This document shows, in pieces, positions 19,924 through 49,177 of a stretch of DNA of 64,000 nt. Below the pieces are notes generated by a model. It did no database searches, was not told where the DNA came from, and saw only the letters and a list, made by a program, of their open reading frames with translations. The first letter of the stretch is position 1, and each line of letters starts with the position of its first letter. A program made the translations under genes and the position numbers. Origin of the DNA: Deferribacteraceae bacterium UBA6799. GTDB taxonomy: Bacteria; Chrysiogenota; Deferribacteres; Deferribacterales; Geovibrionaceae. The DNA lies in contig DKFJ01000007.1 in assembly GCA_002452335.1 (NCBI GenBank), positions 66,571 to 130,570 on the forward strand. Reading direction: 5' to 3'.

Positions 19924-20021
19924 ATACAGTCACAGAAAATATAACCGTTTTTTTATTGGCAGTCAATCAGTATAATACTAATATTAAAATTGATTTGGAT
20001 AAAAAATATCAGATAGAAAAA

Positions 20022-20359: not shown

Positions 20360-20363
20360 AGCT

Positions 20364-23799: not shown

Positions 23800-25092
23800 C
23801 TATTTTCTAACCAGTTCCTCTTTTTCTCCCAGAACACCCGCAGACCACAATAGGTTGGTATACTGAACGCTGTAGTCTCTGTATGCCCTTGCCAGACGCA
23901 CCTGAGCGCTTCTGAGGTTATATTCGGCATCGTCCACCTCCAGCTTGGTCTTAACACCGAATTTAAAGCCTTTTTCGGCCATATCCAGTAGTTTAGCCGC
24001 TTCGTCCACTGTGCCTTCCGCCGCATCTATTATCTCCGCCGCTTCCTTGACACGGCTCACCGCCTGTCTGATATCCAGAGAGACCGAATCAGCGGTATTC
24101 AGCTCGTCCAGCTTGCTCCGGCGGAGGTTGCTGAAAGCCTGCGACCTTTTTCCGCTGGTCTTCAGCCCGTCAAAAAAATTAAACGACAGCGTAACCCCCA
24201 CATTCCATGTGTTCAGAGTCTTGTCATCGTCACCTTCAAGACGGGTGGAGTCATACCCGCCGCTGAGGTCCAGCCTCGGCTTGTCTCCGGCGCTGTCTAT
24301 CTTTATCATCTCTTTGTAGACATCGGTCATCAGCCTTTTGTCTTTCAGCTCAGGCCTGTTTTCCGAAGCTGTTTTTATCAGTGAGTCATAGTCCGGAGTG
24401 CTGTATATCTTCTGCTCCAGACTGCCTGCGGCATCTATTTCTCCGTCTATGCTGAGTATGAATCTCAGCCTGTCTTTAGCCGTCACCAGATCATTCTTAT
24501 AGGTTATGACATCCGGATAGGCGTTCTTCAGAGCCACTTTGGCAGAAAGAACGTCATAGTCTGTGGCCGTGCCAAGATCATATCTTTTCTTCGCTTCGTC
24601 ATAGTGACGCTCTCGCTGTCTGACATTCGATTCGGCGATCTCCAGAAGTTTCTTGGTCAGCAGGATATCTGCAAAAGCGACATTAACATCTCTCACTACC
24701 GCCTGCTGATACATTCTGAGCTGTTCATCGCCTGTTTTCAAACCTATCTGAGCCACCTTGATAGCGGCGCCCACCTGCCCCCATGTGAAGAGAGCCTGTT
24801 TCACCGTAACCCCTGCGGAATAAGAGCTGAATGTATCACTGCCCACATAGCTTCCTGTGGACTCATCCTTGTTTCTGAAAGCCTTGCCGTATAAAGAGGC
24901 GTTGGGCAGAGCCGCAGACCTCTCTTCCACATACACACCCTGAAGATAGTTTATATATTCTTTTGCGGACGCTATGCTCTTGTTCTTTTCCATGGCGATG
25001 CTGACCGCCTCGTCCAGCGTCAGTGTCCTGACACCGGCGGCAAAGAGAATACACGGCGCCAGCAGAATTATAGCTGTGAGTCTGAGTATCAT
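23800..25092 (-). CDS. TolC-family outer membrane efflux protein
   Basis: Signal peptide and a 430-aa protein with an OEP repeat pattern. The ATG at 25092 forms an ATGA overlap with the stop codon of the RND pump gene. Confidence 0.8.
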   Translation of the reverse strand: MILRLTAIILLAPCILFAAGVRTLTLDEAVSIAMEKNKSIASAKEYINYLQGVYVEERSAALPNASLYGKAFRNKDESTGSYVGSDTFSSYSAGVTVKQALFTWGQVGAAIKVAQIGLKTGDEQLRMYQQAVVRDVNVAFADILLTKKLLEIAESNVRQRERHYDEAKKRYDLGTATDYDVLSAKVALKNAYPDVITYKNDLVTAKDRLRFILSIDGEIDAAGSLEQKIYSTPDYDSLIKTASENRPELKDKRLMTDVYKEMIKIDSAGDKPRLDLSGGYDSTRLEGDDDKTLNTWNVGVTLSFNFFDGLKTSGKRSQAFSNLRRSKLDELNTADSVSLDIRQAVSRVKEAAEIIDAAEGTVDEAAKLLDMAEKGFKFGVKTKLEVDDAEYNLRSAQVRLARAYRDYSVQYTNLLWSAGVLGEKEELVRK

Positions 25093-28000
25093 GCGTGCCC
25101 TCCCCTGAATATCTTTTTCATCCATCCCGCGAAATCATCCAGAAGAGTGTAGACCACGGGAACAACCACCAGAGTCAGAATTGTGGAGGTGATCAGACCG
25201 CCCACAACAGCTCTCGCCATCGGCGCCCGCATCTCCGCTCCCGCTCCGATAGCCAGAAACAGCGGCATCATACCGAAAATCATCGCCAGCGTGGTCATCA
25301 TGATGGGACGGAATCTCGTCCGTCCTGCCGTCACCAGTGCCTCTGTGCGCTCCATTCCGCCGCGCCGCAGATGCTTTCCGTAGTCTATCAGCAGAATGGC
25401 GTTCTTCGTCACCAACCCCATCAGCATGATAAGACCGATGAGAGACATGATATTGACCGTGTCGCCTGTAAGGTGAAGCATCCCCGCCATGCCTACTATA
25501 GACAGAGGCAGAGAGAACATGATCGCCAGAGGCTCTATGAAAGACTCGAACTGAGCCGCCAGAACCAGATATACCATGATAACGGCGAGTATCAGCGCTT
25601 CCGCCATATAACCGAAGGACTCAGCCATATCCTCGCCCTCTCCCGCAAATGAGAAGGTGTATCCCGGCTCGGTCTTGATCTCCGGAATCTTCTCTTTCAC
25701 CAGATTGATAGCCGTACCGATGGGCATATTGTCCAGGTTTGCCGCCACCTCAACCTTTCTGGAGAGAGCCTGCCTGTCTATCTGTGAAGGCGAATTGTCC
25801 ACCTCATATGTCGCTATGCTTTTCAGAGGGATCAGTTCCGACTTGTTATTCTTGTTAACGGCTATCTTCAGGTTCATCACCTGATCCGCCGTCATCCTGT
25901 ATCTCTCGTCCAGACGCACACGGATGTCAACCGCGTCTCCGTCCTCCTCCTCGAATGTGGAGGCGACAGAACCGCCCAGCAGAATACTTACGGCGTTCAC
26001 CACATCCGTGGAGGTTATTCCCAGAGCGGCCGCCTTCTCTCTGTTCACTTTCAGCCTGTATTCGGGAGTGTCGTCTTCCAGAGACGCCGACACGTCCACT
26101 ATTCCTTTGATGGACTGCATTTTCATCTTCAGCTCTTCCGAATATTCTTTCAGCTTGTCCAGGTTGTCTCCTGATATGTTCACCACCAGGGGCTTGTCGG
26201 AGCTTTTCAGACCGCCCGCCTCCTCAATGGATATTTTTATCCCAGCTACTTTCGACAGTCTCTCTCTGAAGTCCTTCTGAACCTCTTCCTGAGTCCTGCC
26301 GCGTTCTTTCTTGTCCACCAGCTTCACATACAGCACGCCTTCATGCACAGTGCCGCTGTCTCCGGCGCCAATTGTGCCGTATGTATGCTCCACCTCTCTG
26401 ACATCTTTCACTGCCTCCAGCATTGCCGTCAGTCTGCTGCGGCTCTCACTGATGGATGAGTCCGGCGCAGTTTTAAAGCTGACCTGAAACTCTCCTTTGT
26501 CATACTGCTCCATGAAAGCGGACTGGAGAGTGCCGAACAGAAACAGACCTATGACGAAAGCAGCTGTTGTAATCACCACGATGGTCTTTCTGTGGTTCAG
26601 CGCCCAGCGCACAACAGATTTATAGCTGTCGCCTATATTGTCGAACATAACGTTGAACTTATGAATCAGTTTCGCCAGACCTTTTCTGTCTTTCTTGCCT
26701 ATGGACGGGTCGTGCCATCTGGAAGAAAGCATGGGGTCCAGAGTGAAGGACACCAGAAGAGATATGGCAACCGCAAAAGCGACTGTCATACCGAAAGAGA
26801 AGAAGAACCGCCCCACTATACCTTTCATGAAGGCAACAGGCACGAAAACCGCCATAACGGAAAAAGTGGTCGCCATAACCGCCTGACCTATCTCGCTTGT
26901 ACCCTCTCTGGACGCTGTCATATGGTCCTTGCCCATCTCGACGTGGCGCACGATATTCTCCCGCACAACGATAGCGTCGTCTATCAGCATACCTATCGCC
27001 AGCGACAGAGCCATCAGGGTCATTACGTTCAGGCTCATGCCCATGGCGTAGATTATTATAAATGCCGCTATAACCGAAATAGGCAGCGTAAGCCCAGTGA
27101 TAACAGTTGAGCGCCATGAATTGATAAATAAAAATACAATAAGAACAGTCAGAATACCGCCGATGATGATAGTATCCTGAACATCCGCCAGAGAGTCCCT
27201 GATCTGCTGCGATGAGTCGCGCACAACAGTTATCCTGACATCTGCCGGAAGCTCGTTCTTTATCTTGTCCACTCTCTTAATGACATCATCCACCACCTGA
27301 ACAACGTTCGCTCCGGACTGCTTCAGAACGTCCAGAGAGATCGCCGGCTTACCGTTATACAGCGAGACGGTTCTCTCCTCCTCCACGTTGTCTATGATGT
27401 TAGCCACCTCACCCAGCTTAACCGCCCGCCCGTCCAGAGACATCACGGTCAGATTTTTCAGCTGATCGGCAAAGTCGCCCTTGCCGGAGATACGCACAGA
27501 ATATTCGCCGTCGCCCCTTGTCATCCTGCCCAGAGGCGTGTTTATATTCTCCGCCTTGATACCGTTTATGACGGCGGTGGGGGTTATACCCAGACTCTCC
27601 AGCCTCAGGGGGTCTATCTCAACATTTATCTCTTTTTCCGCTGAGCCGACCATGTCCACTTTTCCAACACCCTGAACTGATTCCAGACGTTTTTTGATCA
27701 GCTTGTCCACTATGTCTGTCAGCTCTCTTTGTGACAGAGTTTCTGACTGAGCCGCTATGGATATTACCGGCATAGCGTTAAAATCCAGCTTCTGAATGAT
27801 GGGCTCTTCTATATCGTCAGGCAGATCGCCCCTGATGGCGCTGATCTTCGCCCTGACCTCCGGATTCACATCGTTTATTTTGGTTTCCAGAGTAAACTCG
27901 ATAACAACGGTGGATACGCCCTCGTTGGAATATGACATAACTTTTTTAACGCCTGCCACCGGGTTCACCGCTTCTTCTATCTTTTTACTGACCTCGGTCT

Positions 28001-28178
28001 CCACCGTCTGCGCCGAGGCGCCCGGATATTTTGTCACAACCGAGATGAACGGAATCTCCACATTGGGATATTCCTCCACAGAAAGCCTTTTGTATGAAAA
28101 AACGCCCAGAACCACCAGAGAGAGCATTATAACGGTGGCAAAAACAGGCCGTTTTATTGATAAGTCTGATAAAAACAT
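25089..28178 (-). CDS. RND multidrug efflux transporter permease (HAE1, AcrB-like)
   Basis: 1029 aa with 12 transmembrane segments and two large periplasmic loops. Starts MFLSDLSIKRPVFATVIML. Confidence 0.9.
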   Translation of the reverse strand: MFLSDLSIKRPVFATVIMLSLVVLGVFSYKRLSVEEYPNVEIPFISVVTKYPGASAQTVETEVSKKIEEAVNPVAGVKKVMSYSNEGVSTVVIEFTLETKINDVNPEVRAKISAIRGDLPDDIEEPIIQKLDFNAMPVISIAAQSETLSQRELTDIVDKLIKKRLESVQGVGKVDMVGSAEKEINVEIDPLRLESLGITPTAVINGIKAENINTPLGRMTRGDGEYSVRISGKGDFADQLKNLTVMSLDGRAVKLGEVANIIDNVEEERTVSLYNGKPAISLDVLKQSGANVVQVVDDVIKRVDKIKNELPADVRITVVRDSSQQIRDSLADVQDTIIIGGILTVLIVFLFINSWRSTVITGLTLPISVIAAFIIIYAMGMSLNVMTLMALSLAIGMLIDDAIVVRENIVRHVEMGKDHMTASREGTSEIGQAVMATTFSVMAVFVPVAFMKGIVGRFFFSFGMTVAFAVAISLLVSFTLDPMLSSRWHDPSIGKKDRKGLAKLIHKFNVMFDNIGDSYKSVVRWALNHRKTIVVITTAAFVIGLFLFGTLQSAFMEQYDKGEFQVSFKTAPDSSISESRSRLTAMLEAVKDVREVEHTYGTIGAGDSGTVHEGVLYVKLVDKKERGRTQEEVQKDFRERLSKVAGIKISIEEAGGLKSSDKPLVVNISGDNLDKLKEYSEELKMKMQSIKGIVDVSASLEDDTPEYRLKVNREKAAALGITSTDVVNAVSILLGGSVASTFEEEDGDAVDIRVRLDERYRMTADQVMNLKIAVNKNNKSELIPLKSIATYEVDNSPSQIDRQALSRKVEVAANLDNMPIGTAINLVKEKIPEIKTEPGYTFSFAGEGEDMAESFGYMAEALILAVIMVYLVLAAQFESFIEPLAIMFSLPLSIVGMAGMLHLTGDTVNIMSLIGLIMLMGLVTKNAILLIDYGKHLRRGGMERTEALVTAGRTRFRPIMMTTLAMIFGMMPLFLAIGAGAEMRAPMARAVVGGLITSTILTLVVVPVVYTLLDDFAGWMKKIFRGGHA

Positions 28179-28188
28179 CTGTCAGCCC

Positions 28189-29328
28189 CTATTTCGCTAT
28201 CTGAATTCTGCCGCCGTTCTTCACAGTGAAAGACCCTCTGAAGATGACCTGTTCGCCGTCGGTGAGTCCTGAAAGTATCTGGACGTTTCCGCCGCCGGTC
28301 CTTCCTGTTTTCACCTCTCTCATCTCGGCTATGCCGTCTTTGGCAACGTAGACCTTCGCTGTGTGAGACACTACGTCATTGCCCAGCAGAGCTGTCTGAG
28401 GGATCAGGATAGCGCTGGTGACGACACCGGTATATATCTTTGCCTTGACGAAAAAACCAGCCTTAAGCAGCCTGTCTTCGTTAGGAACAGTGATATTCAC
28501 GCTGACCGCTCTGTCTCCTGTGCTGACCTGCGGGTTTATATGCGCCACTTTTCCTGTAAAGACCCTGTCCGGATAGGCATCCACCGTGAAATCAACTCTG
28601 CTTCCCACGCTGATGCCCGATATGTCCACTGTCGGGATCTGAACGTTCAGATCATACACAGATTCATCTATAATAGTGAACAGGGCGGCACTGTTTTCTC
28701 CACCCGCCATGTCGCCCACATTAGCGTTTCTGGCAGCTATGGTTCCGTTTATCGGTGATATTATGTTTGTTCTGGATATCTTTACGTTTATCTGTTTCAG
28801 CTCTTCCTGAGCCGCCCTGATCTGCGCCTGGGCAGACACTGTCTTTGCCTCCGCCGCATCCGCCTCTGTCAGCGCGTCATCAAGCTGCTGGCTGGTGGCG
28901 AGCCCTGATTCCTTCAGGTTTTTCACCCTTGTCAGTTCTCTCTGAGCACGGGTCATGTATGTTTTCGCTTCCATGTACTGCGCCTGAGCCGTCTTCACTG
29001 ACGCTTCCGCGCGTCCGGCGGCGGCTCTCAGTTCTTCTGAGTCTATTCTGGCGAGAGGCTGACCTTTCTTCACAGCTACCCAGTCGCTGACGAAAACTTC
29101 TCTGACAACACCGGATGCCTCCGCCCTGACGTCTGCGCTGTATTTTGCCGTCAGACTGCCTGTGGCGTCCACATAGTTCTCTATCTGTTTTGTTTCCGCT
29201 GTAATCACTTCCACAGCGGTGGCATCCTGCTCCGCTGTCTCTGTCTTGTCCGTCCCCTTGTTTCTCATCACAACTGCCGCTATGAGCACCAACAGAACTA
29301 TTCCAGTAATAATTGTCGTCTTTTTCAT
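28189..29328 (-). CDS. RND efflux periplasmic adaptor (membrane fusion protein, HlyD/AcrA family)
   Basis: 379 aa with a lipoyl / coiled-coil / beta-barrel layout. Confidence 0.85.
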   Translation of the reverse strand: MKKTTIITGIVLLVLIAAVVMRNKGTDKTETAEQDATAVEVITAETKQIENYVDATGSLTAKYSADVRAEASGVVREVFVSDWVAVKKGQPLARIDSEELRAAAGRAEASVKTAQAQYMEAKTYMTRAQRELTRVKNLKESGLATSQQLDDALTEADAAEAKTVSAQAQIRAAQEELKQINVKISRTNIISPINGTIAARNANVGDMAGGENSAALFTIIDESVYDLNVQIPTVDISGISVGSRVDFTVDAYPDRVFTGKVAHINPQVSTGDRAVSVNITVPNEDRLLKAGFFVKAKIYTGVVTSAILIPQTALLGNDVVSHTAKVYVAKDGIAEMREVKTGRTGGGNVQILSGLTDGEQVIFRGSFTVKNGGRIQIAK

Positions 29329-29924
29329 CCTTCGCCTCTTTTTATGATGATTTTATCAAATAATTTACCTGTGATACGGGATACATCTTCACTGTCCATC
29401 ATACATGAGCATTTGATTATCTGAGTATCCATGCAGAAAAACAGAACAGACAGCAGAACGGTGGTAAAATCTTCTGTAACCACATCTTCCAGCTCGCCGT
29501 TCTCCACACCTTTTCTTATCATTTTGTTCAGCATCTCAGCCATGATGGCGTGATATTCCTCGAAATCGATGAACGGCGCGCCCTGCGGCGGTCCATAGAC
29601 CATGGCGTATATCAGTCGGGCATATTTCAGCCTGGCTGCATGGAGATTCATTATGTCTCTGAACATGTTATTGATCTGAATATAGACGTCCTTCTCCACA
29701 TTCTCATATTTTTTCAGGAGTATTTTGAAATCAGTTAAAGCCTGAGCCATCAGCTCTGAGTAGATGCCCTCTTTGTTTTTGAAATAGTAATAGAGCATAG
29801 GCTTGGTAACGCCGGCTCTGCGCACTATCTCGCTGACTGAGGCGGCGGCGTATCCTTTCTCTGTGAAGAGATCGAGCGCCGCTTCCAGAAGCCTGACTCT
29901 CGCGTCATCAGAAGTGATATTCAT
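29325..29924 (-). CDS. TetR/AcrR family transcriptional regulator of the efflux operon
   Basis: Helix-turn-helix SVSEIVRRAGVTKPMLYYYF. RBS caccctcc(rc) lies before the ATG at 29924. Confidence 0.8.
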   Translation of the reverse strand: MNITSDDARVRLLEAALDLFTEKGYAAASVSEIVRRAGVTKPMLYYYFKNKEGIYSELMAQALTDFKILLKKYENVEKDVYIQINNMFRDIMNLHAARLKYARLIYAMVYGPPQGAPFIDFEEYHAIMAEMLNKMIRKGVENGELEDVVTEDFTTVLLSVLFFCMDTQIIKCSCMMDSEDVSRITGKLFDKIIIKRGEG

Positions 29925-30006
29925 GCACCCTCCAAAAAACCTACTTATCGGTAAGTAAACCCCAAGACCGCAAAAAGTCAACAATAAATTTTATGGTTTT
30001 TTTATG

Positions 30007-31458
30007 TCAGTCGGTTTCTATTCTGGATCTGCCGTTATCTTTGGCTCTGTAGAGTGCTTTGTCCGCTCGGTTGGTTATGGTGGTTTCGGTGTCGCCTTCG
30101 GTAAATTCGCTGATGCCTATACTGAGAGTGACCTTTGTTCCCTCCAGCAGGCTGAGAATCACAGAATCGGTTCTGACGTGCTCGTTTATCCTCTCGGCTA
30201 TCTGTATGGAGGACGTCATGGTTCCCTGCGTAAGAATGATGAACTCGTCACCGCCCCATCTGGCGAGCATATCGGTGTTTCTGATGCACGAAGCGGTTAT
30301 CTCTGATACTCTGGCAATTATTTTATCGCCTGTCAGATGTCCGAAGCTGTCGTTTATATCTTTAAAATAGTCGATATCGAACAGTACCATACAGAATCCC
30401 GTCCCATATCTTTTATTCTTAGCCACTGTGGCTTCAAAAATTCTGGAGAACTCACGTCTGTTGAATGTGCCTGTAAGGTGGTCTGTGGCCGCTATGCTCT
30501 CCAGCTGGCGCTGATAGTATCCAACGGCAAAAGAGATAATAACCATAACAACAACGGTCACCAGAAGCCCGAACAATAAGTTTTTGAAAAAATTAGCCTG
30601 TATGCTCTTCATGGCGGTATTCTGATTCTGAACCACCACCAGAAACCAGTCCAGCTCCGGAACATATCTGGATGTCAGCAGATAATGCACACCATCGCTG
30701 TTGTATTCGAAATTGCTGTAGAGCTGTGACACAGAGAGGAGCTGATCTGCGTATTCTCTGATACCTTCGGAATTTCTGATATTTTTATCTTTCAGCGAGA
30801 TATTCTTCGACCTGATCTGTATATCTCCCCGTGTATCCACCAGATATATCTCACGGTCGTATTTCACCTGATATTCCGACAGCATATTGGTTATGCGTTC
30901 CACATCCAGCCCCACGCCGGTTACGCCGAGCAGGTTATGGCTGTAGTCATAGACTCTGTGGTTTATAAAGATGGTCAGCCTGTTGTTCGCCGCCTGATTC
31001 TCATCTACCTCAAGAGCATAAGGAATATGCTTAGCCACGAAGTTGTAGTACCACTTGTCGTGGGCATCGTCTTTTGATATCTGTTTCAGTATTCCATTGT
31101 AATAATAGTAGTTTTTCGTATTTTCAGAGACGAAGAAAGTGGTGAAGAAGCTGTATTTTGTCATGATATGGTTCAGATATTTCTGGATGGATTCCTCTTC
31201 CTTCTCTCCTGATATCGTCCAGTCACGGACAAATGTGTCGTTCGCCATGGAAGACGCTATGAATATCGGCTTCATCAGATCCCGCTGAATCTCGGAATAG
31301 ATATTGTCCCTGGTCAGCGGCAGTGAAGTGTTTATGATATCGCTGCGCAGCGACTGTTTAGCTGTTTTATAGCTGATGAGGTTGGTAACAAAGAAACCCG
31401 CCGCCAATAAAACGGCAATGATAAATATTAGTCTGTTTTTCCCGGCTATGTGTTCCAA
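30007..31458 (-). CDS. diguanylate cyclase with a periplasmic Cache-like sensor
   Basis: Canonical GGDEF (ARWGGDEFIIL) with I-site RNTD. Two transmembrane segments flank a periplasmic domain of about 270 aa. Confidence 0.85.
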   Translation of the reverse strand: MEHIAGKNRLIFIIAVLLAAGFFVTNLISYKTAKQSLRSDIINTSLPLTRDNIYSEIQRDLMKPIFIASSMANDTFVRDWTISGEKEEESIQKYLNHIMTKYSFFTTFFVSENTKNYYYYNGILKQISKDDAHDKWYYNFVAKHIPYALEVDENQAANNRLTIFINHRVYDYSHNLLGVTGVGLDVERITNMLSEYQVKYDREIYLVDTRGDIQIRSKNISLKDKNIRNSEGIREYADQLLSVSQLYSNFEYNSDGVHYLLTSRYVPELDWFLVVVQNQNTAMKSIQANFFKNLLFGLLVTVVVMVIISFAVGYYQRQLESIAATDHLTGTFNRREFSRIFEATVAKNKRYGTGFCMVLFDIDYFKDINDSFGHLTGDKIIARVSEITASCIRNTDMLARWGGDEFIILTQGTMTSSIQIAERINEHVRTDSVILSLLEGTKVTLSIGISEFTEGDTETTITNRADKALYRAKDNGRSRIETD

Positions 31459-31560: not shown

Positions 31561-31595
31561 AAAAAAAGACCGGAAGGGATTTCCTTCCGGTCTTC
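31561..31595 (-). terminator. terminator of the encapsulin operon
   Basis: gaccggaagg-gattt-ccttccggtc preceded by a9 on the plus strand, which reads as a T-run on the minus-strand transcript. Confidence 0.75.
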
Positions 31596-31600
31596 ATGAT

Positions 31601-32401
31601 TTACTTAATAGAGAAGCCCACAACCGCTTCAGGTGTTATAACCCTGAAGGTGAAGGACTCCGTCAGAAACAGGTTGACCTTTTCGGAATCGTGGCTGTGA
31701 TATCCCACAGCGAAATCCTGTCCGATGGTCAGCTCAAGGTCGCCCTCTCTGTCCGCCACCATGACAGCTCCGTCCACAGCCTCGGAATAGATAATGTCGC
31801 CTTTGATCTGTTCTTTCACTATGTCGCCGAGTGCTCCGCCGGGAACCACATGGGCGAGGAATTTCCACAGAGCGGGAGACACCACAAGGTTAGCCCCTGT
31901 TTTTATCCCCTCTTTTCTCATGCGTCCCTGCGCTTCGGACAAAGCTTCCACTATGCTGTCCTTGTCCAGCGCCATAGCTATTCTGTCTTTTGCCGCGATC
32001 TGATTCAATCCAACTATACCGCCGCTCTTGAATCCGTTAAAAACAGCAGTCTCTTCGAAAGCCGCCATCTTTCTGGCCGCTTCAGTCAGAGCATCGAACT
32101 GAATGTCTTTCGCTCCTCTTTCGATATTGTCCAGCTCCCAGATGTTCAGCGAAAAATTAACCCTCGCCTCCACCAATGGAAGAACCTTGTTAACGCCGTA
32201 CTGAACGCCGTCTTTTTTCTGTCCGGACGGTATATCTAAACGACCGAGGCTCACACAGGCATAGTCTACGCCTTTTGGACCTTCTACGTCGGAAAATTTT
32301 CTTGCGGAAAGATTTGCTGTCAGTGTTGCCTTGGCGAGTGAGGCTATTTCGTCCCACGCCGCTCCGCTGACTGGTGCATATTCTTTTCTGAGAAGACTCA
32401 T
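31601..32401 (-). CDS. Family 1 encapsulin nanocompartment shell protein (HK97 fold, linocin-like)
   Basis: MSLLRKEYAPVSGAAWDEI...LWELDNIERGAKD...GDLELTIGQDFAVGYHSHDSEKVNLFLTESFTFRVITPEAVV is collinear with Thermotoga maritima encapsulin (...LWELDNLERGKPN...[41 protein letters not shown]). Confidence 0.85.
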   Translation of the reverse strand: MSLLRKEYAPVSGAAWDEIASLAKATLTANLSARKFSDVEGPKGVDYACVSLGRLDIPSGQKKDGVQYGVNKVLPLVEARVNFSLNIWELDNIERGAKDIQFDALTEAARKMAAFEETAVFNGFKSGGIVGLNQIAAKDRIAMALDKDSIVEALSEAQGRMRKEGIKTGANLVVSPALWKFLAHVVPGGALGDIVKEQIKGDIIYSEAVDGAVMVADREGDLELTIGQDFAVGYHSHDSEKVNLFLTESFTFRVITPEAVVGFSIK

Positions 32402-32415
32402 CGTATCCTCCTTAA

Positions 32416-32775
32416 TTACTTATTTTTCAGGCTGCCGATCCCCAGATCCTGTCCGGAGGCAGGCTCCGTCTGGGATGCTCCGGAGAGGAACTCTTCCTCC
32501 ACCTCTTTTGCTCCCATCTGATAAAAATTCTCTTCCTCGGGATCCAGCTCTTTTAGCAGTCTCAGGAATTCTCCGGCGTGAACCTTTTCCTCATCGGCTA
32601 TATCCAGAAGAACCTGCTGAGCCAGCTTGTTGTCTGTTGATTCCGCCAGCTGCTGATAAAGCTGAATAGCCTCATATTCCGCCGCAACCATAAATCTGAT
32701 AGCCCTGACAAGCTCTGTGTCAGTCAGTTTTCTGTCGTGCTGTAACCCGCTGAAAGGGTGTCCGAAATCCGGCAT
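32416..32775 (-). CDS. encapsulated ferritin-like cargo protein (EncFtn) with C-terminal targeting peptide
   Basis: Ferritin-like four-helix motif (AAEYEAIQLYQQLA...DIADEEKVHAGEF), a linker and the C-terminal ...SGQDLGIGSLKNK, which matches the encapsulin targeting-peptide consensus. It lies immediately upstream of the shell gene. Confidence 0.8.
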   Translation of the reverse strand: MPDFGHPFSGLQHDRKLTDTELVRAIRFMVAAEYEAIQLYQQLAESTDNKLAQQVLLDIADEEKVHAGEFLRLLKELDPEEENFYQMGAKEVEEEFLSGASQTEPASGQDLGIGSLKNK

Positions 32776-32878
32776 ACGCTCCTCCTTTTTGCTGCTGTAT
32801 ATCTAGTTCAGGAACTCTGTTTTTTATAACGTTTATACTGTCTTTATAAATATACCTGCATTATGGCTTATTGAAAAG

Positions 32879-32892
32879 GATAATTTTTATCA
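32879..32892. promoter_or_regulatory. candidate Fur/PerR-type 7-1-7 box upstream of the encapsulin operon
   Basis: GATAATtTTTATCA compared with TGATAATnATTATCA. Confidence 0.3.
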
Positions 32893-33376: not shown

Positions 33377-33462
33377 CTCTGCACCCGCTTATTCTTCAAT
33401 CAAACTGTCTGATTTTGATATTCAATATCATTATTTTCTTGACACTTTACGGGCTATTGTAT

Positions 33463-33480
33463 GATAATGATTATCATTAT
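33463..33480. promoter_or_regulatory. Fur box overlapping the -10 region of the AraC regulator promoter
   Basis: GATAATGATTATCATTAT compared with the consensus GATAATGATAATCATTATC. A TTGACA -35 element lies at 33439-33444. Confidence 0.55.
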
Positions 33481-33509
33481 TTTATATATTTCCGATGAGA
33501 GGTTGTAAA

Positions 33510-34559
33510 ATGCACGAAAAATTCCCGATGATGGGTATTGTCACAGAGAAGGACATAGCAGTTTATAAACTCAGAAACGACCAGGGTTCTTATGACGAAA
33601 TACCTGTCAGCAATCACTTTTTTGAAATGCACGGACTGAAGAGATATGTTGAGGAAATCGCCATTCAGAGCGGTCTGTCTGTTTTTTTAATCGATCTTCC
33701 CGCTGAGGCGGAGATAGAGATGGAATATACCGTAAACGAATGTCCGCTGGCTTTCGGAGTAACACTGGAATGTGATATGCACTCGGTATATTATAAAAAC
33801 GGCGCCCAGCTGATGACGGAGCACAAACAGCCGAACACACTTATTATCAGCAAGTCAAACAACTCAAGCGGCAAGAGCATAAAAGATAAAGGAAAGCCTG
33901 TGCAGGTCGTCAGTATCGCTTTTGATAAAAACCTGGCGAAGGTTCTGTTCAAAAACGAGCTGAGCTTTATCAAGCCTGAGCTCGAGGATTTCTTTCAGGA
34001 CAACGACCATTTTTATGAACTCACAGAGCATGCCTCCCCTGTTCAGATAGCCGCCGCCCGGTCCATAATGTCCTGTTCTCTGGCATCGCCCAAGAGAGAG
34101 CTGTTTATAAAATCTAAAGTCTTCGAGCTGATGAATCATATCTTCTCAGAGTTTTTTCTGAGCTCTTCAGACACATCAAAAAGATCAGTTCTCCAGCCCG
34201 GCGAAGTGGACAAGATAAAAGACATCAGAGACTACATATCCGAGAGGATAGATACTCCCCCCACCATAAACGAGCTGGCGAGACTGTCCGGCATCAACGA
34301 TTTCAAGCTGAAAGCAGGGTTTAAGGAAGTGTTCGGAACCACCGTATACGGATACATCCAGTCAGAAAAGATGACCAAAGCCAAGCTGATGCTGGAGACC
34401 GGAGAACACACCGTCAGCGAGATCGCCTGGACCATCGGCTATACAAACGTCAGTCACTTCATCAAGGCATTCAAGAAACACTATAACATCACCCCCGGTC
34501 AGATGCTTTATCATGTGAAAAGCGACATAACACAGAGCCGGATCAAATACTCCGTTTAG
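33510..34559 (+). CDS. AraC-family transcriptional regulator (PchR/YbtA-like position in the siderophore uptake locus)
   Basis: C-terminal double helix-turn-helix (INELARLSGINDFKLKAGFKEVFGTTVYGYI...TVSEIAWTIGYTNVSHFIKAFKKHYNITPGQ). The ATG at 33510 follows gagagg. Confidence 0.8.
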   Translation: MHEKFPMMGIVTEKDIAVYKLRNDQGSYDEIPVSNHFFEMHGLKRYVEEIAIQSGLSVFLIDLPAEAEIEMEYTVNECPLAFGVTLECDMHSVYYKNGAQLMTEHKQPNTLIISKSNNSSGKSIKDKGKPVQVVSIAFDKNLAKVLFKNELSFIKPELEDFFQDNDHFYELTEHASPVQIAAARSIMSCSLASPKRELFIKSKVFELMNHIFSEFFLSSSDTSKRSVLQPGEVDKIKDIRDYISERIDTPPTINELARLSGINDFKLKAGFKEVFGTTVYGYIQSEKMTKAKLMLETGEHTVSEIAWTIGYTNVSHFIKAFKKHYNITPGQMLYHVKSDITQSRIKYSV

Positions 34560-34639
34560 AGCTTATATCCCTCCCTCTGCGGGCAGAATAGACCTTCGGA
34601 TGAGCGTAAAATAAATATGCAATATTTTGGAGGTTTATA

Positions 34640-36711
34640 TGAAGAGATTTTTGAATCTGATTTGCGCCATCACAGTTATGGCGCTGTTTCAGGGAGTCTC
34701 CTTTGCTGATGATGTTCAGCTGGAGACCATCACCGTAACTGCGGAAAAAAGAGCCGCAGACCCGCAGGAAGTTCCCACGCCCATGAACGTAATGTCCGAC
34801 ACGTTTGTTCAGGACACAGGCATCGATACTATGCAGGACATGGCAAGATATGTTCCCAACATCATCCTCGATTCATGGGGGCTGAACCAGTCATGGGTTG
34901 TCTTCAGAGGCATGAGCGCCAGTGAATTTCTGGGAACCAGCTCCATGGTGCTGAACATAGACGGACTGTCGAGCGACAGCAACTACGGCTTCGACACATC
35001 ATTCGAGGATGTTGAGCGTGTGGAGGTGCTCAGAGGACCCCAGGGAACTCTTTACGGCAAAAACGCCATCAGCGGCGCCATCAACATAGTCACTAAAAAA
35101 CCCGGAAACGACTTCACCGGAATGGTGGGATTCTCCGCCGAGGAGAGAAACGGGCTCAAGGCAAAATTCGCCCTCTCAGGTCCTCTGAAAAAAGACAGAT
35201 TCTATATGGGGCTTTCCGGCGGATATGAGCAGACGGACGGATATCTGAACGATGAAACTCCGGGAGCCAAAGACAACATAGACGGACATGATAAACATTT
35301 TCTCACGCTGAAGCTGAGAGCCACCCCCGGCAAAGACAACGACATCATATTCAAATATTCGCACAACGAGGTAAACGGAGCCGCTCCTTCAGCGGTCTTT
35401 TCCAACACTCCCGGATATGACATATACACAGGGCTGACAGACAATGATTATGACGATTCAAAATCACTGACCGACTCACTTCTGCTGAATATGGAATTCA
35501 GAAGACAGTTCGCAGATATCACGTCTATCACGTCATATAAAAACGTGAACACAGACGAAACAGTGGTTATGGGCAGTGTCGGCGGAGCGAGCGCTATGGG
35601 TATTCAGGATTTCGAACTGCCCTCTTTCACTCAGGAGCTCCGAGTGGCGTCACACGGCGACAAAGGCACTAGATGGATCACAGGGCTCTTCTACGACAAC
35701 TCAAAATATGATGTAAGCGAGATGTCCAGCATATATGACTACACCGTCTATACCTTTGAATACAACTGGATGCCCGTAACAAAATCGCAGACCTACGCCG
35801 TTTTCGCCGAGGCCACAATTCCTCTGTTCACAGAAAAATTCTCCGTAACTCTCGGCGGCAGATATGAAAAGACTGAGAGGGAGATGGACTACAGGCTTGT
35901 CACCAGCATGAGCGGAGTAACGATGGCGGACGACAGCTATAGTGTGGACAAGGAATGGTCTTCTGTTCTGGGCAAGATTGCCTTCGCTTATGAACCGTCA
36001 GAAAACAGAAATTTTTACATGTCTCTCACACAGGGATATACCCCCGGCGGATTTAACTATACCACCGCCGATCCCGAGATAGCTGATTTCAACGAAACGA
36101 ACTCTCTTAACTATGAAATAGGGATCAAAACAAAGCTGCTGAACAACAGAGTGATGCTGAACGCCAATATCTTCCACTCTATATACGAAGATCTTCAGGT
36201 GATGGAAACCAACTATGTCTCAGGCATTTATTCCGTAAAAAACGCCGGGAAGGCACACACCACCGGTATAGAGACGGACATTCAGGCTAAGCTGACAAAG
36301 GGTCTGGATATTTTCCTCACAGCGGGGCTGATGGAAGCAAAATATGATGATTTCGAAATGAACACCGAGAATTTTGACGGCAACTACATGATAGGCGCTC
36401 CGAAATTCACAGGGACAGCCGGAGCCACATACAGACACTCATCAGGCTTCATGGGATCAGCGAGTATCAGACACACCAGCAAAACATACTACGCCAAATC
36501 AAACTCAGAACAAACGATTCAGGAGTCCTATGAAACTGTGAATGTGAAAGTGGGATATGAATCCATGAAAGGCTATGAGATATATCTCTTCGTCAGAAAC
36601 CTGACAGATGAAAAGTATTTCACCTATATGAGAGACGGAGGATCAAGCCTCGTCTATAACTATATCGGCGAACCGAGAACAGCCGGAATAGAAGTAAATT
36701 ACAGATTCTGA
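34640..36711 (+). CDS. TonB-dependent outer membrane receptor (siderophore-type)
   Basis: Signal peptide, plug domain (VERVEVLRGPQGTLYGKNAISGAINIV), a beta-barrel and a C-terminal Phe. RBS ggagg lies before the ATG at 34640. Confidence 0.9.
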
Positions 36712-36755: not shown

Positions 36756-38012
36756 TTAAAACGAATATTTCATACCGACATAAACAAAATCATTTTCATT
36801 ATATCTGCCGTATATATCTTCTACTTGTCCGAAGATATCCATATATCCGGCTGTGAGCTCCAGATTGTCCCCGTATTTATAGCTGAAAAATAACTCTGCC
36901 GCACCGCTATTATCCGTAAAGTAAACCGTACTTCTGATCCCTGTCTTTAAGTCATCCTGAAAATATTTTTCACTGATTTCAAACGACACGCCTCTGGTCT
37001 CACGGTCTGACGGCAGGTCATCACCTTTTAGATATGTTCCGAAAAGCTGAAAATTCAAATATCCTGTGTTTCGAAAATTAATATCGTAACCCAGCACCCA
37101 TTCGTAATAATCATGTTTTTCAGGTATGTCAGTCTGCTGGACATATTTGCCGGGTTTAACGGACAGCTCCCCCCTGAGGGTGCTTTTTTCAAATCCGGCG
37201 GCGAAATTTATATCCAGCGCCGTCATAGGCTTATACTCCACGGTATAGATATTTCCGGCTCTTTTATAAAAAGGGCTGTCGTCGTATCCCGTGAAATATA
37301 TCAGCCCCAAATCCACACTGCCGAAAGTGCCGTAAACACGCATGGCAGCCTCCGCACCGTCCGGTTTGTCATCATAGTTTATGTCAATCAGTCCTGCCGC
37401 CTTTGCTTCATACATGGCTTTCAGAGATGGGTCGAGCCAGGGGTTACCGTATTCCGGCAGAGACATCACCTCGGCACGCGGAATCAGCACCAGCTCAAAT
37501 GTCAGCCTGTCTGCGGTATAGATAAAGTCAGTCAGCAGGATGGCTTCTCTGCTGTCAGAACGCGCGGTGGAAAAAAGGTTATCGGGATCTCTGGGGTTGA
37601 TAAGATCCAGCGGGTTGATGCCGTCTCCGGTTCCCCATCTCAGCATCTTTTTACCCGCTATCACGTCCAGCCTGCGGGTATCCAGAGTCAGATATGCCTC
37701 ATCCAGTCTGCCCGTCAGTTTATGACCGTATTCTTTTTCGAAATCGTTTTCCAGTATCACAGAGGCGTATTCACGAATCAGTTCCGTCTTATACTGCTGT
37801 TCCATAAAAAGCTTCTGCCTGTTCTGCAACGCTTCAGACTCAACGGTATAGTGCCTGTACGTCTCCTCCAGATAGCCGCTGACAGAAAAATTTTTCTGCT
37901 CAGCCGTCTCCATAACAGGAAAGCCGTCCGAGAAAAAATCATCGAACGGCTCTGCCGAAACAGACCCCGACAGGAGAAGCAGGGCCGCGAAACTATATAA
38001 AACTTTTATCAT
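36756..38012 (-). CDS. secreted outer-membrane-associated protein (DUF1302-like) encoded with the MMPL transporter
   Basis: Signal peptide MIKVLYSFAALLLLSGSVSA, beta-strand-rich sequence and a C-terminal ...YVGMKYSF. It is the third gene of the MMPL operon. Confidence 0.5.
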   Translation of the reverse strand: MIKVLYSFAALLLLSGSVSAEPFDDFFSDGFPVMETAEQKNFSVSGYLEETYRHYTVESEALQNRQKLFMEQQYKTELIREYASVILENDFEKEYGHKLTGRLDEAYLTLDTRRLDVIAGKKMLRWGTGDGINPLDLINPRDPDNLFSTARSDSREAILLTDFIYTADRLTFELVLIPRAEVMSLPEYGNPWLDPSLKAMYEAKAAGLIDINYDDKPDGAEAAMRVYGTFGSVDLGLIYFTGYDDSPFYKRAGNIYTVEYKPMTALDINFAAGFEKSTLRGELSVKPGKYVQQTDIPEKHDYYEWVLGYDINFRNTGYLNFQLFGTYLKGDDLPSDRETRGVSFEISEKYFQDDLKTGIRSTVYFTDNSGAAELFFSYKYGDNLELTAGYMDIFGQVEDIYGRYNENDFVYVGMKYSF

Positions 38013-38013
38013 G

Positions 38014-38775
38014 CTATCTCTTCAGATTACTGAGCTGAAAGACATCATCCGACACTCCTGTGTTATAAACCACGTTAGTGCGCTCCAGATAGGTCTTGTT
38101 GTCAGTACCTTCCGTGCGCATAACAGTTTTGGTATATGTCATAATACCGCTGATGTTTTTGAATCCGCCATAAAGGGCTGTCTTTATCAGTCTGCCCCGC
38201 TTGTCGAAATATTCTGTCTTGACCGGAAGAAAAAAACTGTCGTGTACCCACACACGTCTTTTGCCGTAGTTGGTCTCCTTCTTTTTCATCGGTACGGTCT
38301 CCAGAACATAACAGTCATATCCCCCGAATTTCTCTTTCTTCAGGAGAGTATGAGCGTCATCGTCCACCGCCCTCTTTTCTATATCTTCGTTAGCAAAGTC
38401 GGAACGCATGAACGAACCTTTTTTTCCTCCGCCTGAAATCCTTCTCGTCAGGTTCTCAGACGGCAGAAACATCCACATATCATCGTCCTTCTCCGTATCT
38501 TCGTACCCCCATGTCAGATACATGGTTCCCTGCACATCCGCCGGTTCCTCGAAGGTGATCAGCGTCCTGGTATCATCGCCGTATTTTTTGGAAACGCTGT
38601 CGATTCTGCGCACCAGCTTCATATTGCCACGTTCTATAAGCATCAGCATGTCCATTGAGCTGTCTCTGCTGGTGTCCACATCGTCCATCTTCTGATATAT
38701 TTCCCTGCCGGTCATCTCGGCGTAAGACGGCAAGGCAAACGCCACAAGCACCAGCAGTATGTATATTTTTTTCAT
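38014..38775 (-). CDS. LolA-like outer membrane lipoprotein-sorting-family protein (DUF1329-like)
   Basis: Signal peptide MKKIYILLVLVAFALPSYA in a 250-aa periplasmic protein. It is spaced 1 nt from both flanking genes. Confidence 0.55.
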   Translation of the reverse strand: MKKIYILLVLVAFALPSYAEMTGREIYQKMDDVDTSRDSSMDMLMLIERGNMKLVRRIDSVSKKYGDDTRTLITFEEPADVQGTMYLTWGYEDTEKDDDMWMFLPSENLTRRISGGGKKGSFMRSDFANEDIEKRAVDDDAHTLLKKEKFGGYDCYVLETVPMKKKETNYGKRRVWVHDSFFLPVKTEYFDKRGRLIKTALYGGFKNISGIMTYTKTVMRTEGTDNKTYLERTNVVYNTGVSDDVFQLSNLKR

Positions 38776-38776
38776 A

Positions 38777-41110
38777 TTATTCTCCTTTTTCCATGCCCAG
38801 AGGCTTTGTCAGCAGTATGATAGCCGGAGCCAGAAACAGATCGGCAATGAGCGCCCAGCTGAAAGCCCAGCCAAACATAAACGACATTTTCAGATAACCG
38901 GTAAGAGAAGAAAGAGACAGCGGCAGAAATCCGATAACCAGCACTATCGTGGTGAATACGATCGGTCTTCCAACCGTCAGATATGTTTTTTTAAGCGCCT
39001 GAACGTAGTTTTCCGACTCTCTGAACTCATTACGAAAGCGGCTGAAAAAATGTATGCTGTCGTCCACCGAAACCCCTATGATGATGGGAGCGAAACACAG
39101 CAGTATGGCGTCCACGTTCATTCCTATGAACCCGGCTATGCCCAGAGCCATCACGACCGGAAATATGTTGGGAATCATACTGATGATGCCCAGCCTGAAA
39201 GATCTCATCACAATAAGCATCAACAGAAACACAGATACCAGCGCCGCCAGAAAGCTGCTTTTCTGAGCTTCTCCCAGCAGGTCGTTCAGACGCAGATACC
39301 TGTATACGCTTCCTGACATGGATATTTTTACGCTGCTGCCGAATAATTCATCCGCCTTGTGTACCGCTTTGTCACGCAGACTGCGGCATTCCGCCGTGGA
39401 TATGGCGGGGGTGCGCACCACCAGCCTTATCTTATCCGACTGAAAAGCAACGTATTTGTTTATATCACTGCCGCCGGAACCCTCATACATCAGCATATAC
39501 TGAGCCACCGTATCGTCCTTGTCAGGCATGGCGTAGTAATCTATATCGTTGTTGTGCATGGCCTTGCGCATCTTTTTCAACACGTCCGCCACGCTTGCCA
39601 CCTTGACAGCCTCTTTCTGGCTTTCCAGATAGGTTTGAAAATCATCCAGTTTTTTCATAAAATCAGCGCTTTTAACGCCGTCCGTCCTGCCTGTGTCTAT
39701 CATAAATTCCACAGACATGATGCCGCCCATGCGCTCGCCTACAAAGTCCATGTTGTCCCTGTAAGGGTTGCCCGGTTTCACCAGTTTCAGGGTGTTGGAT
39801 TCCATCTGCACCTTTGCGGCGCCGAATACAAACACCACAGAAAGCAGGATAAATACCGCTATGATGCTTTTCGGATAGGCTATCACCAGCCTGTGTATGC
39901 GCATAAGCATACGGTCGAAAAAGTCCTCTTCAGAAGCTTTTTTCGCCCTCTTTACCTTGTCCCTGCCGAAGGAATACCCGGCAGGCACCAGCATCAGAGT
40001 GATAATCAGGGCAGATACCACTCCGGCGGCAATATAAACGCCCATCTCCCTGTACGGCTTAACGTGTGTCACGACAAAGGACAGAAAGCCCACAGCTGTG
40101 GTAAGACTGGTGAACAGCATAGCGAGCCCGCTCTTGGCAAGCCCGGCCCGCAGACTGTCCCGCCTGCCCATTCCTTCGTCGGCACAGTCGTGAAAAGACG
40201 ATATGTAATGCATGGAATCGGCGATACCGACGCAAATCAGCAGCGTCGGCACGGAGATGGTGAGCAGATTAGCCGTAAATCCGGCGAGCGGGATAAACCC
40301 CATAGTCCAGAAAACAGATATAACAACCACAGCCATAGGGATAAGCACCGCTCTGACTCCCCGCCCCAGCCAGAAGAGCAGACCGAGCATTACGATGACA
40401 CTGTACATAAACAGCTTTTTACCGTCCGCTCCAACCAGCTTGTTATAGTCATAGCTGGAATTTGGTCCGCCGAAGACGTATATAGTCATGTCCTGATACT
40501 TGTCCTGATGAACCACTTTGTTCACAGCTTCCGCCACTGCGGCTCTCGGATTCTTGTCCTCTTCTTTATGCGGATACGGTGTCAGATCCAGATACAGCGC
40601 CAGCATACTCTTATCTTTTGATATAAGACTATCCACATATGACTTTTCCGTCAGGGCAAGAGACATCTTCTCGTCAACTTCCCCCTGAGTTTCCGGCAGT
40701 TCCTCCATAAAACCTGATATTTTCAGTTCGTCGTTGCCGGACTCTATCCACTCCACATTACCCAGCCACGTCATATTTTTGACATATGGAACAGTCTCTT
40801 CCAGTTCTGTACTTAGTTTTTCTATCTTTCTGAGCATCTCCGGAGTGAATTTTCCGTCTTCATTCTGATAAAAAAAGACGCTGACAAAATCATCGTTGCC
40901 GAAATTTTCCTCCATCTCCTTCATCACTGCAACGGATTCATCGCCCTCCACAAACCATATTTCGCTGGAATTATCGAAGACCAGCCCCTTTGCGCTCTTC
41001 AAAAAAAACGCTGTGAGAAGTACCAGCAGTATGATAGCAATCCAGCGGAATCTGATGATCTGCTCCGCCAGTGCACCAAAAAATTTCGCTGACTTCGTCT
41101 CTTTATTCAT
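38777..41110 (-). CDS. RND-superfamily MMPL/HAE3-type transporter (sterol-sensing-domain-like)
   Basis: 777 aa with two blocks of about six transmembrane segments and two periplasmic loops. RBS aggagcg lies before the ATG at 41110. Confidence 0.8.
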   Translation of the reverse strand: MNKETKSAKFFGALAEQIIRFRWIAIILLVLLTAFFLKSAKGLVFDNSSEIWFVEGDESVAVMKEMEENFGNDDFVSVFFYQNEDGKFTPEMLRKIEKLSTELEETVPYVKNMTWLGNVEWIESGNDELKISGFMEELPETQGEVDEKMSLALTEKSYVDSLISKDKSMLALYLDLTPYPHKEEDKNPRAAVAEAVNKVVHQDKYQDMTIYVFGGPNSSYDYNKLVGADGKKLFMYSVIVMLGLLFWLGRGVRAVLIPMAVVVISVFWTMGFIPLAGFTANLLTISVPTLLICVGIADSMHYISSFHDCADEGMGRRDSLRAGLAKSGLAMLFTSLTTAVGFLSFVVTHVKPYREMGVYIAAGVVSALIITLMLVPAGYSFGRDKVKRAKKASEEDFFDRMLMRIHRLVIAYPKSIIAVFILLSVVFVFGAAKVQMESNTLKLVKPGNPYRDNMDFVGERMGGIMSVEFMIDTGRTDGVKSADFMKKLDDFQTYLESQKEAVKVASVADVLKKMRKAMHNNDIDYYAMPDKDDTVAQYMLMYEGSGGSDINKYVAFQSDKIRLVVRTPAISTAECRSLRDKAVHKADELFGSSVKISMSGSVYRYLRLNDLLGEAQKSSFLAALVSVFLLMLIVMRSFRLGIISMIPNIFPVVMALGIAGFIGMNVDAILLCFAPIIIGVSVDDSIHFFSRFRNEFRESENYVQALKKTYLTVGRPIVFTTIVLVIGFLPLSLSSLTGYLKMSFMFGWAFSWALIADLFLAPAIILLTKPLGMEKGE

Positions 41111-41295
41111 AATTCTACGCTCCTGTGTGAAATAGAGCGTCATTCTAATACCCGTGAAACGTTTTTTCTGCCCTGTGACGGAGGAATAATAACCATGATT
41201 AAAATGAGATATACCGTATTTCTTTTCAGGTTATTCTATATCCGTTCCGGGGTAGCATTTTTTTTAAATAAAGCACACATATACTCATTATTGAT

Positions 41296-41314
41296 GAAAT
41301 TAGTTATCATTATC
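41296..41314. promoter_or_regulatory. candidate Fur box upstream of exbB
   Basis: gaaattagttatcattatc matches the Fur consensus at 14 of 19 positions. Confidence 0.35.
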
Positions 41315-41335
41315 ACTACATCACGGAGAAATTTT

Positions 41336-41770
41336 ATGCACATGCTCACACATTTGGTCGATTACGGCATCATCGGTATCCTTATCATATTAAGCATCAT
41401 AGCAGTCGCTGTCGCCATAGAAAGGTTCTCATTTTACAAAAAGATAAACGTGGACACATACACTACGACACAGGAACTGGAATCGGTGCTGACCAGCCGT
41501 CTGCATCTGGTCGCCACCATAGGCAGCAATGCTCCTTATATAGGTCTGCTTGGAACTGTTCTGGGAATCATGCAGACCTTTTACTCCATGGGTGCAAACG
41601 GCACCACAAATGTAAACGACATCATGGCCGGTCTGGCTCTGGCGCTGAAAGCAACCGCCGCAGGGCTGCTGGTGGCCATCCCTTCCATCGTGATGTACAA
41701 TCTTCTGCACAGAAGAGTGAACGTACTGATGCTCCGGAAAGAGGCTGAAAATGAAAGACAAAAACTTTGA
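41336..41770 (+). CDS. exbB: MotA/TolQ/ExbB proton-channel protein
   Basis: Three transmembrane segments and GLLGTVLGIMQTF. RBS acggag lies before the ATG at 41336. Confidence 0.85.
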   Translation: MHMLTHLVDYGIIGILIILSIIAVAVAIERFSFYKKINVDTYTTTQELESVLTSRLHLVATIGSNAPYIGLLGTVLGIMQTFYSMGANGTTNVNDIMAGLALALKATAAGLLVAIPSIVMYNLLHRRVNVLMLRKEAENERQKL

Positions 41771-48869: not shown

Positions 48870-49177
48870 GATTAGTATCCCTGTGTGAAACTTTTCTACA
48901 CAGGGATTATTATCCTTCCGCCGGTTTCTTTTCTACTCGGTGGCGGATAATAAATAACCTGATAATCAATATCAATGATGCCCGCGGAAATAAAAAAAGC
49001 CGCTCTTAAAGGCGGCTTTCATTGCACATGCGCTGAAACGGTTTATCCCTGCTGGCGCAGGGAATATGCAAACAAAAAAAGGCACCAGCCAAAAGCTGAC
49101 GCCTTTTTTTAAATCGGGATGACAGGATTGATGGCAAACAAGTTTGCCAAATCACCACCTGCATAAATGAAAAAAGC

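Follow-up and report, generated by a model that had tools for sequence, protein, structure and literature searches.

Positions 31601..32892 of a 64,000-nt stretch of contig DKFJ01000007.1 from Deferribacteraceae bacterium UBA6799 (hereafter the window, meaning the whole stretch analysed) hold two minus-strand open reading frames together with some of the intergenic DNA that precedes them (Table 1). The first frame encodes a putative encapsulated ferritin (EncFtn), referred to below as the cargo, and the second the putative shell protein of a Family 1 encapsulin. Only 14 nt separate the cargo stop codon from the shell ATG, each gene is preceded by a ribosome-binding site (RBS) of its own, and a G+C-rich hairpin that starts 6 nt past the shell stop codon would terminate both. 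The gene that follows downstream, encoding a dCache-GGDEF diguanylate cyclase (30007..31458, minus strand), has a separate promoter-like site. With its own promoter-like site, RBSs and closing hairpin, and a promoter-like site for the downstream gene, the pair forms a small and self-standing unit of transcription of ~1.3 kb; a two-gene operon had been proposed in an earlier note made from the DNA letters. Transcription probably starts at the promoter predicted ~70 nt ahead of the cargo gene.

Table 1. Features of the two-gene encapsulin operon in window coordinates, listed in the direction of transcription
Feature	Position	Strand	Description
Fur-like inverted repeat	32878..32892	minus	TGATAAAAATTATCC on the gene strand, core GATAA-AAA-TTATC; abuts the predicted -35
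Predicted sigma-70-type promoter	32849..32877	minus	TTTTCA-17 nt-TATATT; consensus scan, 9/12 matches
Cargo RBS	32781..32786	minus	AGGAGG, read from the sequence; 5 nt ahead of the ATG at 32775
EncFtn cargo gene	32416..32775	minus	119 aa, stop codon in coordinates; protein starts MPDFGHPF and ends SGQDLGIGSLKNK
Parts of the cargo protein			domain ~1-97, variable linker ~98-110, terminal targeting peptide
LGIGSLK codons	32425..32445	minus	cargo residues 111-117
Shell RBS	32406..32413	minus	AAGGAGGA, read from the sequence; inside the intergenic gap
Family 1 encapsulin shell gene	31601..32401	minus	266 aa, stop codon in coordinates
Intrinsic terminator	31565..31595	minus	13-bp stem (7 G-C pairs), 5-nt loop, T run

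The identity of the shell protein was supported at the levels of family profile and solved structure. It matched the Pfam family Linocin_M18 (PF04454) with 260.6 bits (cut-off 24.3, E = 1.6e-77) over the complete profile (positions 1-253 of 253) and the NCBIfam equivalog NF041155 (encap_f1) with 245.8 bits (cut-off 100). A sequence search of the PDB returned 31 distinct sequences at E <= 0.001, nearly all of which are named encapsulin, maritimacin, linocin M18 or Cfp29, the remainder being two entries labelled only 'bacteriocin' and one engineered nanocage. The top full-length matches were 9RY4 (2.6e-51) and the Thermotoga maritima encapsulin 3DKT (7.4e-51), with Haliangium ochraceum 7ODW (8.9e-44) and mycobacterial Cfp29 shells (~1e-41) among the others. 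The alignment with T. maritima runs through residues 1-261 of both proteins at ~36% identity, with 259 aligned residues and 4 gap positions. The segments IWELDNIERG (LWELDNLERG in T. maritima) and GDLELTIGQDFAVGY...VNLFLTESFTFRVITPEA, from which collinearity with the T. maritima protein had first been read, are present in conservative form. Failure to align with encapsulins, which would have told against this assignment, did not occur and, judged from its sequence, the protein is a Family 1 encapsulin of the HK97-fold family, collinear with solved 60-subunit shells of triangulation number T=1. Since the strongest matches, which have no long insertions or deletions, are T=1 shells, whereas longer shells of 271-324 residues matched far more weakly (4.9e-09 to 4.3e-04), the particle would be expected to be a T=1 assembly of 60 subunits with a diameter of ~24 nm.

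The cargo protein scored 104.7 bits against the NCBIfam model NF058679 (EncB_fam, cut-off 90) and its leading sequence matches in the PDB were the EncFtn domain of Pyrococcus furiosus (5N5E, 5.5e-16) and EncC of Myxococcus xanthus (7S8T, 2.9e-15), with weaker matches to EncB, 2E0Z and TM1526 of T. maritima (1VJX, 2.6e-06). A profile built from 24 homologues matched 5N5E, 2E0Z, 7S8T, 7S5C/7S5K, 7OE2, 33BF, 3K6C and 6SUW, and it reached the H. ochraceum and Rhodospirillum rubrum proteins, NE0167 and 33BF in addition to those found with the single sequence; its only matches outside the encapsulin systems were the ferritin-like TM1526 and a designed di-iron protein (2HZ8). The cargo falls below the cut-offs of two narrower models, TIGR04535 (97.4 against 125 bits) and Pfam PF22277, EncFtn-like (24.3 against 27). 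These misses therefore place the protein in the EncB/EncC/P. furiosus-like branch and outside the R. rubrum-like branch. It also matches the Pfam Rubrerythrin family with 36.4 bits (cut-off 22.8).

Across the 24 homologues the ferritin-like domain is highly conserved and E33, Y40, E63 and H66 do not vary; their spacing (+7, +30 and +33) equals that of E32/Y39/E62/H65 in R. rubrum, and they are in register with the motifs AE.DAI..Y and EEK.H of the P. furiosus, EncC and EncB proteins. According to passages of a review of encapsulated ferritins, the ferroxidase ligands in R. rubrum numbering are Glu32, Glu62 and His65 (EXXH motif) together with Tyr39, and mutation of Glu32, Glu62 or His65 lowers or abolishes ferroxidase activity (PMC11202242). 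The absence of ferroxidase glutamates and histidine, which would have spoken against an EncFtn, was thus not found. An AlphaFold2 (AF2) model of the cargo contains two long helices (residues 19-46 and 50-77), one short helix (81-97) and a disordered tail, with a mean predicted local distance difference test (pLDDT) score of 85-95 per 10-residue block between residues 21 and 80. A Foldseek search of the PDB with this model returned encapsulated ferritins at every one of ranks 1-36. The EncFtn assignment of the earlier note is upheld, with one detail to be corrected, namely that the gene does not encode a 'ferritin-like four-helix protein'. As modelled, a single subunit is half a ferritin, made of two long helices and carrying the di-iron ligands of EncFtn; by analogy with characterised members, the four-helix di-iron unit would be built only by the dimer, and ferroxidase activity and decamer assembly may be expected in the same way.

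The first 17 residues of the cargo (32725..32775, minus strand) deserve separate mention. Their pattern MPDFGxPFSxLKxDR, modelled at moderate confidence, is nearly invariant across the 24 homologues and is common to M. xanthus EncC (NPFHSL), with which the cargo shares the conserved N-terminal motif NPF..L...R/K..T. In solved EncFtn decamers the N-termini are directed into the central channel, as described in part of the same review (PMC11202242), and conservation of this segment suggests an unexplained role there.

At the other end of the protein, the tail GLGIGSLKK is conserved in the 24 homologues behind a linker that varies in both length and composition. Residues 101-112 and 114-119 were modelled with pLDDT < 50, and the arrangement is that of a disordered linker, for EncFtn proteins 10-40 aa ahead of the targeting peptide, followed by LGIGSL, which fits the consensus L(F)X1V(I)X2X3L(I). 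LGIGSLK is identical to the core of the targeting peptide SLGIGSLK, which the literature gives for the EncFtn proteins of R. rubrum and H. ochraceum, and the reading of this terminus as an encapsulin cargo-loading peptide is upheld. By its sequence LGIGSLK is a canonical C-terminal docking peptide, and loading of the cargo into the shell would follow from it. No second targeting-peptide motif and no further tagged cargo were found in all six frames of the window.

Comparison with characterised systems places the operon among several of them. With the encapsulin of T. maritima (3DKT, 7KQ5) it shares the cargo-then-shell layout, a ferritin-like cargo with a C-terminal docking peptide and almost the same shell length (264-265 aa against 266). 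The T. maritima docking peptide, as cited in excerpts, is of the ...DLGIRKL type, unlike LGIGSLK, and the only T. maritima protein among the PDB matches of the cargo, TM1526, is a far weaker match than the P. furiosus and EncC proteins. The EncFtn-encapsulin systems of R. rubrum and H. ochraceum (5DA5, 5N5F, 7ODW, 7OE2) have nearly the same peptide (SLGIGSLK against DLGIGSLK) and, in R. rubrum, the equivalent ligand set, but their ferritin-like domains are only 22-28% identical to the cargo in fold alignments and were reached by profile search alone (7OE2, 7.5e-05; 6SUW, 2.3e-03). The entry-site residues of R. rubrum, E31 and W38, would correspond to A32 and L39 here. The closest solved cargo relatives are the P. 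furiosus EncFtn domain (5N5E, 2E0Z) and M. xanthus EncC (7S8T), with 40-42% identity and Foldseek ranks 1-6, and no solved structure in this branch of the family is closer to the cargo than ~42% identity. EncC carries a peptide of the LTVGSL type, as given in excerpts, in place of LGIGSLK. Moreover, the P. furiosus domain and EncC are loaded into T=3 shells, according to part of the review cited above (PMC11202242), whereas in the present operon the domain stands alone as a free protein, ends in LGIGSLK and is partnered by a shell that resembles T=1 shells. Only the combination sets the operon apart from known systems: its ferritin domain is P. furiosus/EncC-like, its tag is of the R. rubrum type and its shell is T=1-like.

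Taken together, the locus is read as an operon of two genes, complete in itself, that encodes a Family 1 encapsulin nanocompartment and its encapsulated-ferritin cargo, a reading to which we assign a probability of about 0.93; there is no evidence against the identity of the two proteins. How the compartment would assemble and with what T number, how the cargo would be loaded and oxidise iron, and what the physiological role would be may be projected by analogy from the systems of R. rubrum, H. ochraceum, T. maritima and M. xanthus. On this model, cargo subunits would dimerise so that their interface builds the di-iron ferroxidase centre, and the dimers would assemble into ring-shaped decamers. 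As about 60 shell subunits came together into the particle of ~24 nm, the LGIGSLK tails would dock the decamers in a pocket that these subunits present on their inner face. Fe(II) would enter through the shell pores and be oxidised by the cargo, the ferric mineral being retained inside, so that reactive iron would be kept from the cytoplasm and a large iron store would result. The Fur-like repeat that abuts the -35 is a candidate element through which metal or peroxide might control the operon.

The latter element had been described as a Fur/PerR-like 7-1-7 box. The box GATAATTTTTATCA lies at 32879..32892 and, taken as the 15-mer listed in Table 1, has 2 mismatches to the classical Fur box TGATAATNATTATCA; five sites with <=2 mismatches to this consensus were observed in the window, compared with 0.42 expected. 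Its conservation was analysed in the 250-nt upstream regions of five Deferribacterales lineages (the window, L023, L001/L002, L014 and L016/L017), whose upstream sequences are otherwise unalignable. In this set the box is the best-conserved 14-mer, with 49 of 56 matches against a maximum of 44 in shuffled sequences, and its distance from the ATG is similar throughout (-92 to -122). Four of the five lineages retain the symmetric core GATA-N5-TATC, and in L023, L001 and L002 a -10 element (TATATT or TATAGT) follows at equal spacing from the box. GATAAT/ATTATC hexamers occur 7 times in the promoters of the set against 1.1 expected, a count that 0 of 5000 shuffles reached, the extra copies gathering around the box in different lineages, whereas the 74 loci outside the set show no enrichment (9 against 9.8 expected). 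The Seleniivibrio copy of the box reaches into the 3' part of citG, the gene upstream, indicating that it travels with the cassette, and a second Fur-like box is found in this genus at about -30 from the ATG. A direct search for GATAATNNNTATC in the first nine loci was negative; the boxes of the clade differ from that of the window at their outer positions and were found by mismatch-tolerant scoring.

Like the classical Fur box, the element is a 15-bp inverted repeat, in which 13 of 14 specified positions agree, and it abuts a predicted promoter. It departs from the classical form in having AAA at its centre instead of T-N-A and C or T as the last base, and in standing ahead of an iron-sequestering rather than an iron-uptake system. 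It is a variant box, of the TGATAAAAATTATC type, as opposed to the canonical iron-uptake boxes. Boxes of the latter type precede the TonB-receptor and ABC-transporter loci in the window, and since the two best sites in the window stand before iron-uptake genes, Fur boxes of canonical form seem to be in use in this organism. One of them, TGATAATGATTATCA (33462..33476), is perfect and overlaps the promoter region of an AraC-type regulator gene (33495..34559); the other, TGATAATCAATATCA (48960..48974), has 1 mismatch and lies upstream of two tandem minus-strand ABC-transporter genes. A further Fur box with 2 mismatches is located at 33416..33430, 46 nt upstream of the perfect one. A copy of the operon box with 1 mismatch was also noticed inside the cargo gene (32519..32532), where it spells the codons E-N-F-Y-Q and its DNA is not conserved in relatives; it was set aside as most likely a chance occurrence.

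Several observations weigh against a Fur-family site ahead of the cargo gene. The left arm of the repeat is degraded, and its G lost, in L001 and L017 (TAATAA) and in L002 (CAATAA). The box is absent in L006, in L018 and in nearly all of 80 metagenome loci with cargo relatives, of which L023 has it and L041, L093 and L099 have loose look-alikes, so that it is not a family-wide feature. Furthermore, repression of an iron-sequestering system by holo-Fur, the classical mode, would be odd and counter-intuitive. UP elements, which are contacted by the alpha subunit of RNA polymerase, lie directly upstream of the -35, exactly where this A/T-rich block abuts the predicted promoter, and the block is equally compatible with such an element. 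It comes close to an even chance that the block is an UP element, or the site of an unrelated regulator, and that its resemblance to a Fur box stems from A/T richness; the loss of the left-arm G and the closer fit of the iron-uptake boxes of the window to the consensus both speak for this explanation. It does not readily account for a symmetric core kept in most lineages of the clade as the best-conserved 14-mer of otherwise unalignable promoters, for hexamer enrichment confined to this set of loci, or for the second Fur-like box in Seleniivibrio.

Of the earlier description, the box itself stands, with its 2 mismatches and its conservation within the clade, while the assignment to the Fur family stays at the level of a candidate. 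Its function as a Fur-family operator is a possibility to which we would give slightly under even odds. Its centre at about -43 from the predicted start would fit a metal-loaded activator or PerR-like repression relieved by peroxide. That the EncFtn-encapsulin operon of the Deferribacterales carries its own conserved Fur-family operator, moving with the cassette and placing the operon under direct iron- or peroxide-responsive control, is a broader and still tentative proposal, which we would sooner doubt than accept. A search of the available library of papers found none linking encapsulin operons to a Fur box, to PerR or to direct control by the Fur family, and the keyword passages of encapsulin reviews do not address the regulation of encapsulated ferritins.

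A second alternative accepts the compartment and concerns its role, which the earlier note gave as iron sequestration and protection against oxidative stress. Denitrovibrio, Seleniivibrio and Desulfuromusa, all of which have the gene pair, are anaerobes, which weighs against the mechanism outlined above in so far as it leaves the oxidant in vivo uncertain. The main role could instead be that of a bulk iron store or buffer for anaerobic life where sediments are rich in iron, and something other than O2 would then be the oxidant. Among the matches listed, the closest relatives of both proteins come from Deferribacterales, Desulfuromonadales and Desulfobulbales, which are anaerobic lineages, and the window contains several iron-uptake loci with canonical Fur boxes. 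On the other side, the M. xanthus compartment reportedly stores iron and protects against oxidative stress, as the title of McHugh et al. 2014 puts it. Characterised EncFtn systems have been assayed aerobically, according to part of the review already cited (PMC11202242). Storage and protection against oxidative stress may go together, and the sequence offers no means of telling them apart; we regard a predominantly anaerobic storage role as rather unlikely, though far from negligible.

The gene pair recurs in changing surroundings. It was found in Deferribacterales metagenome-assembled genomes (MAGs), in Denitrovibrio acetiphilus (Dacet_1955), Seleniivibrio, Desulfuromusa kysingii and L018, and on many metagenome contigs. 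The best shell match in the species-representative genomes, a set without the window's own genome, is 76% identical and comes from Deferribacterales MAGs, and the cargo homologue search gave at least 8000 scored candidates, all at E <= 0.001. The genes flanking the pair differ from lineage to lineage and include cytochrome genes, a citrate lyase operon, an asparaginase gene and VapBC. In the window, as had been described, the operon sits between a cyclic di-GMP signalling gene, the diguanylate cyclase on the shell side, and a siderophore-uptake locus on the cargo side, where Ppnp (33030), the AraC-type regulator (33495), a TonB-dependent receptor (34627) and ExbB/ExbD/TonB (41195..42823) follow. 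This GGDEF/Ppnp/AraC/TonB-receptor neighbourhood was found in the window's own species only. A functional link between the nanocompartment and the siderophore/TonB neighbourhood was considered and rejected because every relative has different flanks, and the adjacency, not being conserved, is given no functional weight. An Rfam scan of the operon and its vicinity was negative for RNA elements, and a composition profile showed no island at the locus. The least tenable explanation, that the pair is no nanocompartment but a remnant HK97-type prophage capsid gene beside a free rubrerythrin-like protein with a chance tail, can appeal to the Pfam Rubrerythrin match and to the many database copies of the cargo labelled 'rubrerythrin' among the matches listed, but it is very improbable and effectively refuted already by cellular flanking genes of which none has a phage-related Pfam match, by a shell that matches the encapsulin equivalog and solved encapsulins end to end, by a cargo half the length of the rubrerythrin di-iron domain whose structural neighbours are nearly all EncFtn, by a tail motif present in every aligned homologue behind a variable linker, and by a gene pair that travels together through changing neighbourhoods.

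Other features of the window are recorded here for completeness. The AraC-type regulator gene precedes the gene of the TonB-dependent receptor (34627..36711). A minus-strand group at 36756..41143, comprising a gene of unknown function without a Pfam match (36756..38012), a LolA-like/DUF1329 gene and an MMPL/RND-type transporter gene, is divergent from the plus-strand ExbB-ExbD-TonB set. The tandem ABC transporters downstream of the box at 48960..48974 have fused membrane and ATPase domains (47073..48869 and 45302..47155) and are followed by MFS genes (44062..45312 and 42834..44051); this locus may serve siderophore export or import. Beyond the diguanylate cyclase lies a minus-strand set at 23800..29984 with a TetR-family regulator gene and an RND efflux system (membrane-fusion protein, AcrB-type pump and outer-membrane factor), the start of which is linked to the encapsulin operon in the same-species assemblies L010 and L011. 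Bacterial RNase P RNA of class A was detected at 20017..20360 on the minus strand (Rfam, 331 bits), and a Fur-box-like 15-mer with 3 mismatches beside it (19997..20011) is probably due to chance. Two tRNA genes, tRNA-Pro (GGG) at 49210..49283 and tRNA-Val (GAC) at 63706..63777, are both on the minus strand.

The operon described here is an ordinary, uncharacterised addition to the large and well-described family of Family 1 encapsulins with EncFtn cargo, and automatic annotation already recognises it. The exact proteins and the same locus are present in public assemblies, and in clusters of public proteins built at 90% identity a cluster mate of the shell is named "family 1 encapsulin nanocompartment shell protein" at NCBI and its neighbour "ferritin family protein". 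Coming from an uncultured member of the Deferribacterales, it extends the family by one, and its importance hardly goes further than a correct annotation. What is mildly new is limited to the clade-conserved Fur-like site, which opens the regulation of encapsulated ferritins to direct test; if the operon does carry a Fur-family operator of its own, the nanocompartment would be under direct iron- or peroxide-responsive control.

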